64,000 bases of DNA from an uncultured Planctomycetaceae bacterium (GTDB lineage Bacteria > Planctomycetota > PLA2). The notes under the pieces were generated by a model, which worked only from the letters and a program-made list of their open reading frames with translations, searched no databases and was not told the DNA's origin. Numbering within the stretch: position 1 is the first letter of the stretch; each line of letters starts with the position of its first letter. Below, piece by piece: positions 17,222-25,265 of the stretch. Made by a program: the position numbers and the translations under genes. The stretch lies in NCBI GenBank assembly GCA_964570285.1, contig CAZMXP010000004.1, positions 75,365-139,364 on the forward strand, read 5' to 3'.

Positions 17222-18454
17222 ATGCCGACACTGCGGGTGGTGCGGGGGAGGTCGACGGAGGCGGAGTTCCCGCTCACAGGGGAGGTCGTCATCGGCCGCG
17301 CGGAGGAGTGTGCGGTGAGGGTCTACGACGAGGCGGCGAGCCGCCGCCACGCGGCCATCCGCCGGGAGGGCGAGCGCTGGTTCGCGGTCGACCTCGGCTC
17401 GACCAACGGCACCTTCGTCAACGGCGTCAAGGTCGTCCGCCGGGAGCTCAAGTCCGGCGACGAGGTCAGCGTGCGCGACCTGACGCTGCTCTTCCTCGAG
17501 GAGGGGGCCGCCCAGCGGAAGACCGTCCTCGCGGAAAGGGAGGCCGCCCCCGCACCCCCCCAACGTCCCCCCCCCGAGATGGTCGGCGTGTCCGCGGCGA
17601 TGGACGCCCTCAGGGCCGACATCGCGAGGGTCGCCCGCACCGACGCGACGGTGCTGATCACCGGGGAGACCGGTACCGGCAAGGAACTGGTCGCGCGGGC
17701 GCTCCATGACCAGGGGGCGCGGGGGCGCGGCCCCTTCGTCGCGGTGAACTGTGCCGCGTTCGTCGAGACGCTGCTCGAGGCGGAGATCTTCGGCCACGAG
17801 AAGGGCGCCTTCACCGGCGCCGACCGCGCGCGCCCGGGACGCTTCGAGCAGGCGCACGGCGGCACGCTCTTCCTCGACGAGATCGGCGAGATGGTCCCGG
17901 CGCTGCAGGCGAAGCTCCTGCGCGTGCTGGAGACCCTCGAGTTCCACCGCGTCGGCGGCACGAGGCCGATCCGGGTGGACGTGCGCATCCTCGCGGCGAC
18001 CAACCGCGACCTGCGCGGCGGCTCGTTCCGGGAGGACCTCTTCTTCCGGCTCTCGGTCGTGAGGCTGCGCTGTCCGCCGCTGCGGGAGCGCGAGGGGGAT
18101 GTCGCGCTCATCGCGCGCGCCTTCCTCGGCGGGCGCCCCATCTCCGATGCGGCGCTCGCGAAGCTCGACGCCTACCCCTGGCCCGGCAACGTGCGCGAGC
18201 TGAAGAACGCCTGCGAGCGATGCCTCGCGCTCGCCCGCGCGGAGAGGATCGAAGTCGACGACCTGCCGCTCGACGTGCGCGCCGGCCGGCCGGCGCCGGC
18301 CGACGACGGCGAGGTGCTGAGCCTGAAGGAGATGACGCGGATCCAGATCGTGCGCGCGCTGGAACAGACGAGGGGCAACCGGACGAAGGCCGCGGAACTG
18401 CTCGGCATCACCTACCCGACGCTGAAGAAGAAGATCGACGAGTACGGGCTTTAG
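17222..18454 (+). CDS. FHA-domain sigma54-dependent enhancer-binding protein (FHA-AAA+-Fis HTH)
   Basis: FHA (IGR..., [17 protein letters not shown]); AAA+ [39 protein letters not shown]; [15 protein letters not shown]. Confidence 0.95.
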
Positions 18455-18460
18455 GGTCCG

Positions 18461-18559
18461 ATGAAAGATCCTTTCATCGGGCGCGAGGCGGGGGGGCCCC
18501 GGGGGCCGGTCGGCCATTGGCCCCCGGATTGCGGACGTCCCGCGGGGCGGTGTTCATGA
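18461..18559 (+). other. 32-codon uORF or relic of a kinase 5' end (MKDPFIGREAGG...), coupled to the STK1 start
   Basis: Manual translation MKDPFIGREAGGPRGPVGHWPPDCGRPAGRCS*; its TGA overlaps ATG 18556; its ATG lies in the hairpin CCGATGAAAG-ATC-CTTTCATCGG. Confidence 0.45.
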
Positions 18560-21929: not shown

Positions 21930-23806
21930 TGAGCGTGCAGGAGAAGACCCGCGTGGAAGCGACCGGACCCGCCGACCCGCTGATCGGGCGGGAGGTCGGC
22001 GGCTTCCGCATCGAGAGCGTCCTCGGGCGCGGCGGCATGGGTGTCGTCTACCGGGCGATGCAGCATTCCCTCGGCCGCGCGGTCGCGATCAAGGTGCTGC
22101 CGGCGAAGTTCGGCGACAACCCGCAGTTCGTCGAGAGGTTCCGCCGCGAGGTGGACGTGCTCTCGCGGCTGAGCCATCCCAACATCGTCACGGTGTTCGA
22201 GCGCGGCGACGTGGACGGCGCGCCCTACGTCGCGATGGAGTACGTCGAGGGGACGACGCTCCGCGAGGTGATGCGGAACGGCCCGCTGCCGCGCAGCGAG
22301 GCGCTGCTGCTCGTGCGCGCGATCCTCTCGGCGCTCGAGCACGCCCACGGCAAGGGGATCATCCACCGGGACATCAAGCCGGAGAACGTGCTCGTCGCGC
22401 CCGGCGGCATCGTCAAGGTGGCCGACTTCGGCCTCGGGCGGCTGATGGGCCCGGCCGACACGACGCGGCTCACGCACACCCACCTGATGCTCGGGACCTT
22501 CGAGTACATGGCGCCCGAGCAGCGCGAGCGCGCGAAGGAGGCCGACGAGCGCGCCGACCTCTACGCGACCGGCGTCATGCTCTACGAGATGATCGCGGGC
22601 GAGCTTCCGATCGGCGTCTTCGCGCCGCTCTCGGAGAAGCGGCCGCAGGAGTGCGACCGCCGGATCGACCAGGTCGTGCGCCGGAGCCTCGAGAAGGATC
22701 CGGAGCAGCGCTACCAGCGCGCGTCGCAGATGGGCGAGGACGTCTCGCGGCTGCTCACGCAGGCGCCGATCGACATGCCTCCCCCGGCGGGCGCGCGGCC
22801 CCCGCAGCCCCCGCCGGCGGGCACTCTCGCCCGGGCCGGCGCGTGGGTGACCGCGCTGCTGCGCTCCTGGCCCGTCGCGCGCATCACCGGCAAGATCGGC
22901 CGGCGCTTCGCGCGCGATCTCACCGAGGAGCGCGAGGTGCAGCTCTGGCTTCGCCGCGCGGTGCCTGGGCTCTGGGAGACCTTCCCTTCGGGCGTCGAGT
23001 TCGAGAAGGACTCGGGCCGCATCGTGATGAAGCTCGACGCGACCATCTTCCCGCAGCCCGGCGTGCCGCAGCGCCTCGCGTCCGCCTTCGCCCGCGTGCT
23101 CGAGGCGCGCGCGCCGGGCCAGCTCCGCTCGATCGCCTCGGCCGACGCCGAGTGGGAGGCCACCCAGCCGGTCGCGCCGGTGCCGCTGCCGTCCACGCCG
23201 GCCCCGAGGGCGGGCGGTCCCTGCCGCCGGGGCGCCTACGCGCGCTACGGCTGGCTCGCCCTCGCGACGCCGCTCGCGGCCTTCTGGTGGGCCGCGTCGC
23301 ACTCGTTCCGGCTCACCGGAACCGAGTGGGCGATCTGGTCCTGCGCGACCGCCGCCAGCATGATCCTGCTGCCGCTGCTGCTCGGCGCCTTCGGCCGCTG
23401 GGGGTGGGCGCTGCTCGCGATCGCGGCGCCGGCCTTCTTCTTCCTGACGAAGGTCGAGGATCACCGCATCCAGGTGGTCGCCTTCTCCGCGCGACTTCCC
23501 GACAACCTGCTGATCAAGCTGATGAGCGAGCCGGAGGTGGACGCCTACATCCGGTCCCACGCGCCGGTCTGGCCCACGTGGCCGGACGGCATGACCGTGC
23601 AGCAGGACTCCTGGACCCTCGGGGTCACGATCCCGGCGGCGCACGCTGCCGAGGACCGCGCCCACGAGATCGCGGCCGTGCTCTCCCGCGTGATCCAGGT
23701 GCGGGCGCCGATCCCTGTCACGCGGAGGGTGTTCGGCGACGCGACGCTCGAGCGGCGCCTTGCGTCCAATCCCGTGCCCGGCGGCGCGGCGGCGGTGGAA
23801 CGATGA
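21929..23806 (+). CDS. Membrane Ser/Thr protein kinase (STK2) with a duplicated about 60-aa domain
   Basis: [35 protein letters not shown]; ATG 21929 lies inside track ORF 20522..23806. Confidence 0.95.
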   Translation: MSVQEKTRVEATGPADPLIGREVGGFRIESVLGRGGMGVVYRAMQHSLGRAVAIKVLPAKFGDNPQFVERFRREVDVLSRLSHPNIVTVFERGDVDGAPYVAMEYVEGTTLREVMRNGPLPRSEALLLVRAILSALEHAHGKGIIHRDIKPENVLVAPGGIVKVADFGLGRLMGPADTTRLTHTHLMLGTFEYMAPEQRERAKEADERADLYATGVMLYEMIAGELPIGVFAPLSEKRPQECDRRIDQVVRRSLEKDPEQRYQRASQMGEDVSRLLTQAPIDMPPPAGARPPQPPPAGTLARAGAWVTALLRSWPVARITGKIGRRFARDLTEEREVQLWLRRAVPGLWETFPSGVEFEKDSGRIVMKLDATIFPQPGVPQRLASAFARVLEARAPGQLRSIASADAEWEATQPVAPVPLPSTPAPRAGGPCRRGAYARYGWLALATPLAAFWWAASHSFRLTGTEWAIWSCATAASMILLPLLLGAFGRWGWALLAIAAPAFFFLTKVEDHRIQVVAFSARLPDNLLIKLMSEPEVDAYIRSHAPVWPTWPDGMTVQQDSWTLGVTIPAAHAAEDRAHEIAAVLSRVIQVRAPIPVTRRVFGDATLERRLASNPVPGGAAAVER

Positions 23807-23840
23807 ATAGGGGGCACGGGGGCAGGGGTAGGAGTCCAAG

Positions 23841-25265
23841 GTGGATCTGAGCGCGAGGACCCGGGTCAGCGAGAGCGTTCCCGACCCCTTCATCGGGCGG
23901 ACGATCGAGGGCCACCGCGTCGAGGAGGTCATCGGCCGCGGCGGCATGGGGACGGTCTATCGCACGACGCAGGTCTCCCTCGGCCGGCGCGCCGCGCTGA
24001 AGGTCCTGCCGGCGGATCTCGCGCAGGACCGGCACTTCGTCCAGCGGTTCCACCGCGAGGCGGAGGTGCTCTCGAGGCTGAGCCACCCCAACATCGTCAC
24101 GGTCTTCGATCGCGGCGACGTGGACGGGCGCCCGTTCCTGCTGATGGAGTACGTCGAGGGGCCGAGCCTGCGCGAGCTGCTGCGCCGCGGGCCGCTCCGC
24201 CCCGACGTCGCGCTGCGCCACGTCAGCGCGGTGCTCTCCGCGCTGCAGCACGCGCACGGCAAGGGCGTGATCCACCGCGACATCAAGCCCGAGAACGTGC
24301 TGCTCGCCGAGGGCGAGATCGTCAAGGTGGCCGACTTCGGCCTCTCGCGCCTGCTCGGCCCCGCCGAGACCACGCGGCTCACGCGCACGCACTTCGCGAT
24401 GGGGACCTACGAGTACATGTCGCCCGAGCAGCGCGAGCACGCGAAGGAGGCCGACGAGCGGAGCGACCTCTACGCGACGGGCGTCATCCTCTACGAGATG
24501 CTGACGGGCGAACTGCCGATCGGCCGGTTCGACCTGCCGTCGCGCCACCGCCCGAGCGAGTGCGACCGCCGCGTCGACGCGATCATCGAGAAGAGCCTCG
24601 AGAAGGACCCCGAGCGGCGCTACCAGCGCGCCTCCGAGATGGCGGATGCCGTCTCGGGCCTGCTCGAGGGCCCGGCCGGGGCCCCCCAGCCCCTGCCGCT
24701 CCCCGCGCGGGCGGCCGCCCGCATCGAGAACCACATCGACAACGTCGCGACGATCGACTACGTGCTCGGCACGCTCAGCCACCTGGTCGGATTCGCCGTG
24801 CTCTTCGGCGCGATCCGGATGCGAGTCGCGTTCGGACTGCCCTTCTTCGCCTTCTTCCTGACGGGCTGGTACCTGCGCAGCACCGCCGAGGAACTGCGCG
24901 CGTACAAGCCCGGCGCGCGGACGGGGCAGGCGGTCATCGCCCTCGTCGCCGCCGCCACCGTCGTGCTGCTCCCGTTCACGCTCTACTCCTTCTGGGTCCT
25001 CTTCGGCCACCGCGGCCGCACCTACTACGAGGCGCGCGGGCGCGGCCTCGACAGCCGCGAGGCCACCCGGTTCACGCAGCATCTCTTCGGCGAGGCCCGC
25101 CGGGCCCCCCGGCCGTCCCCCTCCCCGCGCCCCTCCGACATCGATCTCCAGTCCGTCGTCGTCTCCTCGCCCGCTCCCCGCCCGCGCGGCGGGCGGCGCG
25201 CGACGCTGCTGCTGCTGCTGCTGGTCGCCGGGCTGGCGGCGCTGATCTTCTACCTGCGCCACTGA
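23841..25265 (+). CDS. Membrane Ser/Thr protein kinase (STK3)
   Basis: [35 protein letters not shown]; several TM helices plus a C-terminal helix; AGGAG before the GTG. Confidence 0.95.

Follow-up and report, generated by a model that had tools for sequence, protein, structure and literature searches.

A putative sigma-54-dependent gene cluster of Planctomycetota encoding an FHA-bearing activator, membrane kinases and a probable distant relative of PspA

A 64,000-nucleotide stretch of contig CAZMXP010000004.1 (positions 75,365 to 139,364 of the forward strand; assembly GCA_964570285.1) from an uncultured Planctomycetaceae bacterium, referred to here as the window, contains six adjacent genes that raise the question of whether a PspA-like protein can be placed under the control of Ser/Thr kinases and a sigma-54 activator with a phosphothreonine-reading FHA domain. 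A preliminary description proposed that these genes form an envelope-stress system akin to Psp, in which membrane kinases take the place of PspB and PspC. The explanation that best accounts for the data jointly is that the cluster constitutes a self-contained module, found in a clade of Planctomycetota, that combines signalling with an effector and depends on sigma-54; we give this a probability of about 0.6. The observations that carry it are the gene content, the architecture and conservation of the promoters and operator-like sites, and the folds of the effector and a putative adaptor, together with the remote homology of the former.

Organization of the gene cluster

The window has a G+C content of 72% and its raw lists of open reading frames (ORFs) are crowded, and coding frames were chosen by third-position G+C. 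There is a single coding frame along the region 17222–25265, giving six co-oriented genes on the + strand at exactly the coordinates proposed previously (third-position G+C, Pfam; Table 1). They encode a sigma-54 enhancer-binding protein (EBP), a Ser/Thr kinase (STK1), a coiled-coil protein (CC), a protein with two transmembrane (TM) helices (the 2-TM protein) and two further kinases (STK2 and STK3). The stop codon of the 2-TM gene and the start codon of STK2 overlap in the sequence TGATG, and because of this overlap STK2 is expected to be translationally coupled to the 2-TM gene. Directly 3′ of the STK1 stop codon there is a 17-nt inverted repeat (19827..19867, +) resembling a terminator hairpin. 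The 545-bp spacer between STK1 and CC has no Rfam match (elsewhere in the window Rfam identifies two tRNAs only), and a sigma-70 scan found no promoter in the region.

Table 1. Genes and predicted regulatory sites of the cluster (positions in the window).
Feature	Position	Strand	Description	Basis
EBP	17222..18454	+	410 aa; FHA 22-83, AAA+ with GAFTGA 121-282, lid, Fis-type helix-turn-helix (HTH) 373-408	Pfam
Single perfect palindrome GAAAGATCCTTTC	18463..18475		Operator-like; between EBP stop and STK1 promoter	
Sigma-54-type -24/-12 element TGGCCCCCGGATTGC	18518..18532	+	24 nt 5′ of STK1 ATG; missed in the preliminary description	
STK1	18556..19803	+	Hanks Ser/Thr kinase, 415 aa; C-terminal TM ~312-330 and 373-399	Pfam, hydropathy
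Dyad pair GCAAGCTACTTTC (20183-20195) and GAAAGATCGTTGC (20205-20217)	20183..20217		22 bp apart; candidate enhancer (upstream activating sequence) for the EBP	
Sigma-54-type -24/-12 element TGGCCCCCCCCTTGCG	20296..20311	+	15-nt core TGGCCCCCCCCTTGC (20296-20310); 53 nt 5′ of CC ATG	
CC	20349..21191	+	280 aa; probably membrane-anchored and PspA/IM30-like	AlphaFold2, Foldseek, hhalign
2-TM gene	21252..21929	+	225 aa; TM1, TPR-like helix pair, TM2, immunoglobulin (Ig)-like domain	Pfam, AlphaFold2, Foldseek
STK2	21929..23806	+	Hanks kinase, 625 aa; long C-terminal region with TM segment(s)	Pfam, hydropathy
STK3	23841..25265	+	Hanks kinase, 474 aa; three C-terminal TM segments	Pfam, hydropathy

The coiled-coil protein

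The identity of CC is central to any interpretation of the cluster. It had been called PspA-like, and two parts of that assignment hold, a remote relationship to PspA/Vipp1 and a helical hairpin, as judged from AlphaFold2, Foldseek and hhalign; the Pfam cut-off is missed and the amphipathic helix alpha0 is absent. The AlphaFold2 model, built from the family alignment, has a hydrophobic helix (residues 5-23), a hairpin (41-107/121-203) with a small beta-hairpin at its tip, and two additional helices (206-235 and 255-267). The predicted local distance difference test (pLDDT) score is >90 over most of the hairpin. The long alpha1-alpha2/3 hairpin, whose absence would have refuted the preliminary description by its own account, is thus present, followed by alpha4 and alpha5, in a structure that is predicted rather than solved. 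In a Foldseek search of the PDB, Vipp1 or PspA chains take all ten top places, with 182-264 aligned columns and E values from 1.5e-3 to 2.5e-2.

Comparison of sequence profiles points in the same direction. When a diverse alignment of the CC family is compared with PspA and Vipp1 by hhalign, the match has a probability of 84.5% and a score of 42.9. The reversed control scores 17.5 and 60 heptad-block shuffles score 16.1 ± 3.1 (maximum 27), such that the real score is ~8 sd above the shuffles. The PspA profile used for this is shallow, consisting of six enterobacterial PspA proteins and one Vipp1 (Synechocystis); a homologue search with E. coli PspA gave, among the matches listed, enterobacterial proteins only, with at least 86% identity. 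A relaxed alignment is colinear from end to end, pairing CC 12-277 with PspA 1-221, and includes three common motifs. The first is at the start of alpha2, where CC TLNRDAVLRAK is paired with EDLARAALIEKQ; this corresponds to the most conserved motif of the CC family, TLNRDA(L/V)LRAK, matched to (D/N)LAR(A/E)AL of PspA/Vipp1. The second is in alpha4 (CC FDQARDKVAEIRATI with ARFESFERRIDQM) and the third in alpha5 (IDAITSVLAQ with DDAISEQLAQ). PF04012 is also the commonest Pfam match at E≤0.01 in a diverse set of the family (11/64, best 8.9e-7; the next family has 4/64). In a closer set, two generic coiled-coil families are commoner than PF04012, which matches 23 of 32 members at E≤1, and among the matches listed for five close homologues it always aligns residues ~144-241 with profile positions 95-191. 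One family member has been named 'PspA/IM30 family protein' by NCBI.

Several observations weigh against this assignment. The window CC has no match to Pfam PspA_IM30 at E≤0.1, and the PF04012 gathering cut-off of 33.9 bits is not reached, the best among the family scores listed being 31.6 bits for a close homologue; judged by these scores, CC lies outside the PspA_IM30 family as Pfam has curated it. The Foldseek TM-scores are 0.33-0.54 with modest E values, and hairpins of colicins, SMC, EnvC and RipA follow closely behind. Hidden Markov model searches of PDB sequences with the CC family return mostly generic coiled coils (CheY noise, MacA, GCN4 chimeras), with Vipp1 at E 0.14. The family is also small and distinct, its members being of 260-300 aa and all having the hydrophobic helix at the N-terminus; it forms 122 clusters at 90% identity, and a search of 1.84 billion proteins gives 83 representatives at E≤1e-3.

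These departures would suit an explanation in which the kinases and the FHA-containing EBP form a real operon and CC is functionally something other than a PspA, such as a membrane-anchored scaffold or cytoskeletal element that organizes kinases or acts in cell shape, division or development, so that the circuit controls something other than membrane repair. The tip motif and beta-hairpin of CC, which are not seen in PspA, are consistent with this, as are the weak matches to many other coiled-coil families, and the FHA-containing EBPs of Myxococcus are known for a role in development, not stress. We nonetheless consider this explanation unlikely; the match to PspA/Vipp1 runs colinearly from end to end and includes common motifs, the profile score is well separated from those of the shuffles, and both the leading Foldseek matches and by far the commonest Pfam match in the diverse set are to the PspA group. 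CC is therefore probably a divergent, membrane-integral member of the PspA/IM30 superfamily.

The N-terminus of CC differs from the amphipathic alpha0 in that residues 5-23 are fully hydrophobic, with a mean hydropathy of 2.0 and conserved Gly, Phe and Asp residues, as would suit an integral anchor or signal sequence. The order of an MKK, a hydrophobic stretch and V-x-A could denote a cleavable signal peptide followed by a periplasmic coiled coil, which would also count against a PspA-like role. CC would then begin with a Sec signal peptide that is cleaved off, or with an N-in anchor, and its coiled coil would share the periplasm with the TPR-like motif of the 2-TM protein in an envelope-spanning or peptidoglycan-associated complex, with the kinases sensing across the membrane. 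This would fit with the length of the hydrophobic stretch (17-18 residues), the conservation of V-x-A at 23-25, the EnvC and RipA coiled coils among the Foldseek matches, and the predicted location of the TPR-like helix pair between the TM helices of the 2-TM protein, i.e. outside. It is an improbable arrangement, however, in that the hydrophobic helix is highly conserved (G10, F17, G19 and D21 are invariant) and longer than typical signal-peptide cores, R24, K29, R31, R35 and K37 directly after it disfavour export by the positive-inside rule, and the AlphaFold2 model has a continuous helix from 2 to 38. The Arg/Lys-rich stretch and the homology to the cytoplasmic PspA and Vipp1 proteins both argue for a cytoplasmic coiled coil.

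Conservation of gene order

A genome scan identified nine loci in metagenome-assembled genomes (MAGs) of Planctomycetota (L001-L009) with the arrangement EBP-(STK1)-CC-2TM-STK(x1-3)-asparaginase II, in one order and orientation wherever the contig reaches. L001 starts inside STK1 with the EBP out of view, and L002 ends ~145 nt past CC such that only EBP and CC are visible. In the closest relative (L010/L011), STK1 is missing from an otherwise identical order. Gene order is kept in the 11 main-clade loci (L001-L011) and in a further three to four deep-clade loci. In the deep-clade metagenome loci L016, L020 and L021, where CC is ~30% identical, EBP-STK-CC-2TM is retained. Other distant relatives are on short contigs (1-1.5 kb), where CC is preceded by the end of a multi-TM ORF and followed by an ORF with a TM segment and a TPR-like motif. 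The linkage of EBP, kinase, CC and 2-TM protein in relatives, which the preliminary description had named as a check, is thus borne out down to ~30% CC identity, and from this distribution the core of the cluster is the EBP, one kinase, CC and the 2-TM protein, the additional kinases being lineage-specific.

There are also informative departures in which the run of genes is interrupted. In L003 and L004 there are ~6-7 kb of unrelated minus-strand genes between EBP and STK1 (L003:2064-7941; L004:1427-7267). This insert contains no extra component of the system, but rather genes for a multihaem cytochrome c with a cytochrome b561 domain, fasciclin/SOUL proteins and PEP-CTERM proteins; the operator pairs before STK1 and CC are kept despite it. 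In L009 there are ~5 kb between STK1 and CC.

Promoters and operator-like sites

A sigma-54 promoter had been predicted before the CC gene, and at the level of sequence this is upheld by a -24/-12 element with conserved dyad sites upstream, the arrangement expected of a Psp regulon with its activator sites ahead of a pspA-like gene. The core TGGCCCCCCCCTTGC matches TGGC-N7-TTGC and fits the spacing of a -24 GG and a -12 GC. Taken alone it would be weak evidence; the window has three such matches where 1.44 are expected, and 20 of 100 shuffles give at least three, with two of the three being in the cluster, intergenic and on the correct strand. The second promoter precedes STK1, and because of its position the kinase is probably within the regulon too.

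The dyads are more restricted. There are three matches to AAGNNNCTTTC in the 64 kb, in two places (the palindrome at 18463-18475 being counted on both strands), compared with 0.42 expected; none of 100 shuffles reached three, and all of the matches fall within the two intergenic regions of the cluster. The pair upstream of CC is the only such pair in the window. A 13-mer identical to GAAAGATCCTTTC is one of the paired sites 5′ of STK1 in L006 and L008. Using the GG-N10-GC elements of the relatives as anchors in their own upstream regions, we find a 13-bp dyad consensus GCAAG-N3-CTTTC, with the two sites of a pair separated by 22-24 bp (41 bp in L002) and located ~85-130 bp 5′ of the GG-N10-GC element. 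A dyad pair and -24/-12 element precede CC in seven loci (the window, L002, L003, L004, L005, L009 and L010) and STK1 in five (L003 and L005-L008), with both sets being present in L003 and L005. In L006-L008, STK1 abuts CC and the pair and element are before STK1 instead of before CC. The closest relative, L010, whose CC is 91% identical, has the element TGGCGCACCCCTTGCG in flanks that are otherwise different from those of the window.

In the deep clade, the EBP-STK spacer (L016:5731-6170, L020:2066-2460, L021:1296-1690) contains TGAACG-N3-CGTTCA dyads followed by GGCACG-N4-CTTG(A/T), a promoter without the C at -12. The geometry is the same as in the main clade and the operator sequence is different, which looks like co-evolution of operator and HTH. 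The combination of dyads and -24/-12 elements would be the layout expected for an EBP acting on sigma-54 promoters, and from linkage the adjacent EBP is the presumed binder.

An explanation in which the genes are adjacent by chance or shared contig ancestry and the promoter-like strings are accidents of GC-rich DNA is very improbable: TGGC-N7-TTGC is indeed not rare, but order and orientation are kept to ~30% CC identity while flanking genes and insertions vary, the paired dyads and -24/-12 elements recur at fixed spacing in otherwise different intergenic DNA, and the TGATG overlap indicates translational coupling.

In relatives, an AATAGGG box follows the -24/-12 element. We considered whether this box marks a degenerate promoter near -80 in the window and rejected this; no GG-N10-GC precedes the box there, and the element at -53 agrees with the one in the closest relative. 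The third TGGC-N7-TTGC match of the window, TGGCCCGCGGGTTGC (44313-44327, +), is in a divergent intergenic region just 5′ of a thioredoxin gene (WCGPC; ATG at 44385), which is followed by two genes for HtrA/DegP-like Trypsin_2-PDZ proteases in a gene run to ~47448. With no GCAAG-N3-CTTTC dyad near it, the element, if real, would require another activator. The STK1-CC spacer of L005 (~9400-9780) contains a 12-nt unit GGGTCCCGCATT in three to four tandem copies, with two copies of its reverse complement CCCAATGCGGGAC ~200 bp upstream; these repeats flank an AT-richer stretch and may mark a small inserted element.

The activator

The EBP had been described as an FHA-AAA+(GAFTGA)-HTH activator, and it is: Pfam identifies FHA (PF00498, 3.8e-19), Sigma54_activat (PF00158, 2e-65), AAA_lid_14 and HTH_8 (1.1e-11), and the GAFTGA motif is conserved in all of the aligned orthologues with the exception of L007, which has GAYTGA. 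Of the phosphothreonine-pocket residues of the FHA domain, G25 R26, S40 and H43 do not vary among the eight aligned EBPs, nor does N62 (STNGT in the window), although its flanks do. By its pocket residues the domain would qualify as a phosphothreonine reader, and phosphothreonine binding itself is predicted. An R-x-T-V motif directly C-terminal of the FHA domain is invariant among orthologues, and its threonine, T101 in the window, is a candidate phospho-acceptor.

This is not a PspF-type activator, which has AAA+ and HTH domains and no N-terminal regulatory domain. In the PspF equivalog test (NCBIfam TIGR02974) the window EBP scores 262 bits compared with a cut-off of 443, and in addition to FHA its relatives have a GAF domain. 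The orthologues in L002 and L005-L009 are FHA-GAF-AAA+-HTH proteins of 562-565 aa, ~150 aa longer (e.g. L006:205-1890), and GAF is absent from the EBPs of the window and L010. GAF, a second input, would be ancestral and lost in the lineage of the window, apparently by a clean in-frame deletion. Trp56 of PspF, with which PspA makes contact, is not conserved in the window EBP (SSRWQGPF in PspF compared with GARGRGPF), and because of this a PspA-type sequestration of the activator is doubtful.

The kinases

STK1-3 each match Pfam Pkinase at ~1e-47 (STK1 4.7e-47) and all retain the Gly loop, VAxK, HRD(x)4N, DFG and APE motifs; from their sequences they are active-looking Hanks kinases. The prediction of three membrane kinases also agrees with their hydropathy, with hydrophobic segments C-terminal of the kinase domain and almost no room for an extracytoplasmic domain. 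The STK1 orthologues of L003 and L005-L008 start with a Cys4 zinc-ribbon-like segment (MxVTCPACGR...C.CG) before the kinase domain, and the deep-clade kinases (L016, L017, L020 and L021) have other Cys-x2-Cys pairs in this position. The window STK1 is without this segment and starts at a conserved ADPxxG, with its promoter closer to the operator site, which suggests a deletion in this lineage.

The 2-TM protein

The gene preceding STK2 had been described as encoding a TPR membrane protein coupled to that kinase. It does encode a membrane protein and has the TGATG overlap, although there is only one TPR-like motif (Pfam TPR_2 23.8 bits, below the cut-off of 27) and the rest consists of two TM helices and an Ig-like domain. 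The AlphaFold2 model (pLDDT 94.7) has TM1 at 2-23, a helix pair at 40-70, TM2 within a helix at 75-124 and a C-terminal Ig-like beta-sandwich at 131-224, for which the Foldseek matches are Ig domains. The family is conserved in alignment, including a loop of the Ig domain, GKHMKSRPP, in which H173-S176 are invariant. The TPR-like helix pair is predicted to be periplasmic, and the Ig domain to be cytoplasmic because the residues following TM2 are strongly basic (positive-inside rule). In appearance the protein is an adaptor, and not a homologue of PspB/C or LiaF.

A proposed circuit

We propose that the FHA-AAA+-HTH activator would bind the paired GCAAG-N3-CTTTC dyads ~90-110 bp upstream of the two -24/-12 promoters, driving STK1 from one and the operon of CC, the 2-TM TPR-Ig protein, STK2 and STK3 from the other. 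The hydrophobic N-terminal helix of CC would hold the PspA-like protein permanently at the membrane in place of alpha0. With almost no extracytoplasmic domain, the kinases would most likely respond to the condition of the membrane, or to that of the PspA-like and TPR-Ig proteins embedded in it. Their threonine targets could be the kinases themselves, the Ig-domain protein or the invariant R-x-T-V that follows FHA in the EBP. Reading of this mark by the FHA domain would switch assembly of the AAA+ ring. Because the kinases sit behind the same promoters, the circuit would feed back on itself, presumably in a positive sense, and is likely a feedback loop rather than a linear chain from sensor to effector. 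The path from kinase through phosphothreonine and FHA to the activator, with whichever sign, is suggested by co-location of the genes. The likely physiological role would be protection or remodelling of the cytoplasmic membrane; a role in membrane or envelope stress is a guess from homology.

Some observations sit less easily with this circuit. STK1 is absent from L002 and from L010/L011, so it would be dispensable; no phosphatase was seen in the ORFs scanned, and rpoN was not found in the ORFs of the window. None of the six products has a Pfam or NCBIfam match to PspB or PspC, and no LiaF or Toastrack domain was found in the cluster. The earlier proposal that the kinases replace PspB and PspC is best regarded as an analogy.

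Relationship to known systems

The cluster resembles the enterobacterial Psp system (pspF/pspABCDE) in that a sigma-54 promoter with enhancer sites drives a gene of the PspA superfamily (as CC probably is), a cognate AAA+ EBP with a Fis-type HTH is encoded adjacently, and membrane proteins are part of the unit. It differs in that the EBP has FHA (FHA and GAF in most relatives) whereas PspF has no regulatory domain, PspB and PspC are lacking, Ser/Thr kinases are predicted to be co-transcribed, and the effector is below the Pfam cut-off and apparently anchored by a hydrophobic helix instead of the amphipathic alpha0. The cluster is therefore Psp-like in having a PspA-like effector driven by an EBP and sigma-54 together with membrane partners, and lacks the enterobacterial hallmarks of a PspF-type activator and PspB/C. 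In the LiaIH-LiaFSR system of Bacillus subtilis, the PspA homologue LiaH is likewise held at the membrane, by the small anchor LiaI, and is induced by an envelope-stress sensor encoded nearby. In the window the anchor would be fused to the PspA-like protein, control would be by sigma-54, an EBP and Hanks kinases in contrast to the two-component LiaFSR, and there is no LiaF or Toastrack.

EBPs containing FHA domains reportedly occur in Myxococcus and Pirellula. Those of Myxococcus xanthus and Pirellula/Rhodopirellula are said to have the same FHA-AAA+-HTH order and are from phyla rich in Hanks kinases, with a presumed coupling of kinase to FHA. We know of none that has been linked to a PspA-like target, or to co-regulated membrane kinases in an operon.

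Two surveys of Psp systems (PMC11237479 and PMC9239133) make no mention of FHA, threonine kinases or Planctomycetes, and kinases and phosphorylation likewise go unmentioned in a 2025 review of bacterial ESCRT-III-like systems. A full-text literature search for Planctomycetes with PspA, Vipp1 or ESCRT-III returned nothing describing this cluster.

There is a further similarity to archaeal ESCRT-III/Vps4 loci, which encode membrane Ser/Thr kinases, phosphatases and FHA proteins, and in whose associated proteins Ig-like domains recur (Makarova et al. 2024, PMC10936438). As in these loci, a probable ESCRT-III-superfamily gene is linked in the window to membrane kinases and an FHA protein, and an Ig-like domain is present. 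The archaeal loci have a Vps4 ATPase, FHA fused to a CdvA-like domain and no sigma-54 (PMC10936438), whereas no Vps4-like ATPase is seen in the window cluster. One could suppose that the cluster is a bacterial counterpart of this archaeal theme, in which the eukaryote-like kinases would set both the amount (through the FHA-EBP and sigma-54) and the assembly of a membrane-integral ESCRT-III-superfamily protein, with the TPR/Ig protein as membrane adaptor, and in which the purpose would be programmed remodelling of the cytoplasmic membrane in Planctomycetota (such as invagination, budding or FtsZ-independent division) and not repair of damage. We find this version doubtful.

Flanking genes and other features of the window

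An asparaginase II gene (PF06089; 25295-26281) follows STK3 on the same strand, and is always found after the last kinase, in 10 of the 11 main-clade loci (L002 stops short of this position). Divergent from the EBP and upstream of it (14626-17273, -) are a gene for a Kef-type transporter with Na_H_Exchanger and TrkA_N domains and a gene with a bifunctional nuclease domain (BFN_dom); both are also neighbours in L010 and L011, together with a CrcB gene. A 1054-codon ORF at 27199-30360 (+), in a stretch of 77% G+C, has strong third-position G+C and no Pfam match at E≤0.001. At a distance of ~25 kb from the cluster, a DEAD/DSHCT (Ski2-like) helicase gene (48374-50350, +) is immediately followed by a gene for a fourth Hanks kinase (658 aa; 50351-52327, +). 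The two tRNA genes are at 52384-52455 (+) and 13564-13648 (-). The first of these sits within a stop-to-stop frame (52155-53537) of an M42 peptidase, so the peptidase gene must start downstream of the tRNA.

Implications

The PspA, Vipp1 and ESCRT-III proteins are an ancient machinery for membrane repair and remodelling, and the control of its deployment is understood in few models, namely PspF/PspBC, LiaFSR and ClgR. If the proposed module is correct, then CC would represent a separate, membrane-integral branch of the PspA superfamily, and its deployment would be controlled by Ser/Thr phosphorylation, with an FHA-bearing sigma-54 activator as the reader and the kinases themselves belonging to the regulon. 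It would also provide a bacterial parallel to the association of kinases and FHA proteins with archaeal ESCRT loci. The cluster offers concrete objects for testing these ideas, including defined operator sites, two promoters and a conserved candidate phospho-acceptor in R-x-T-V.

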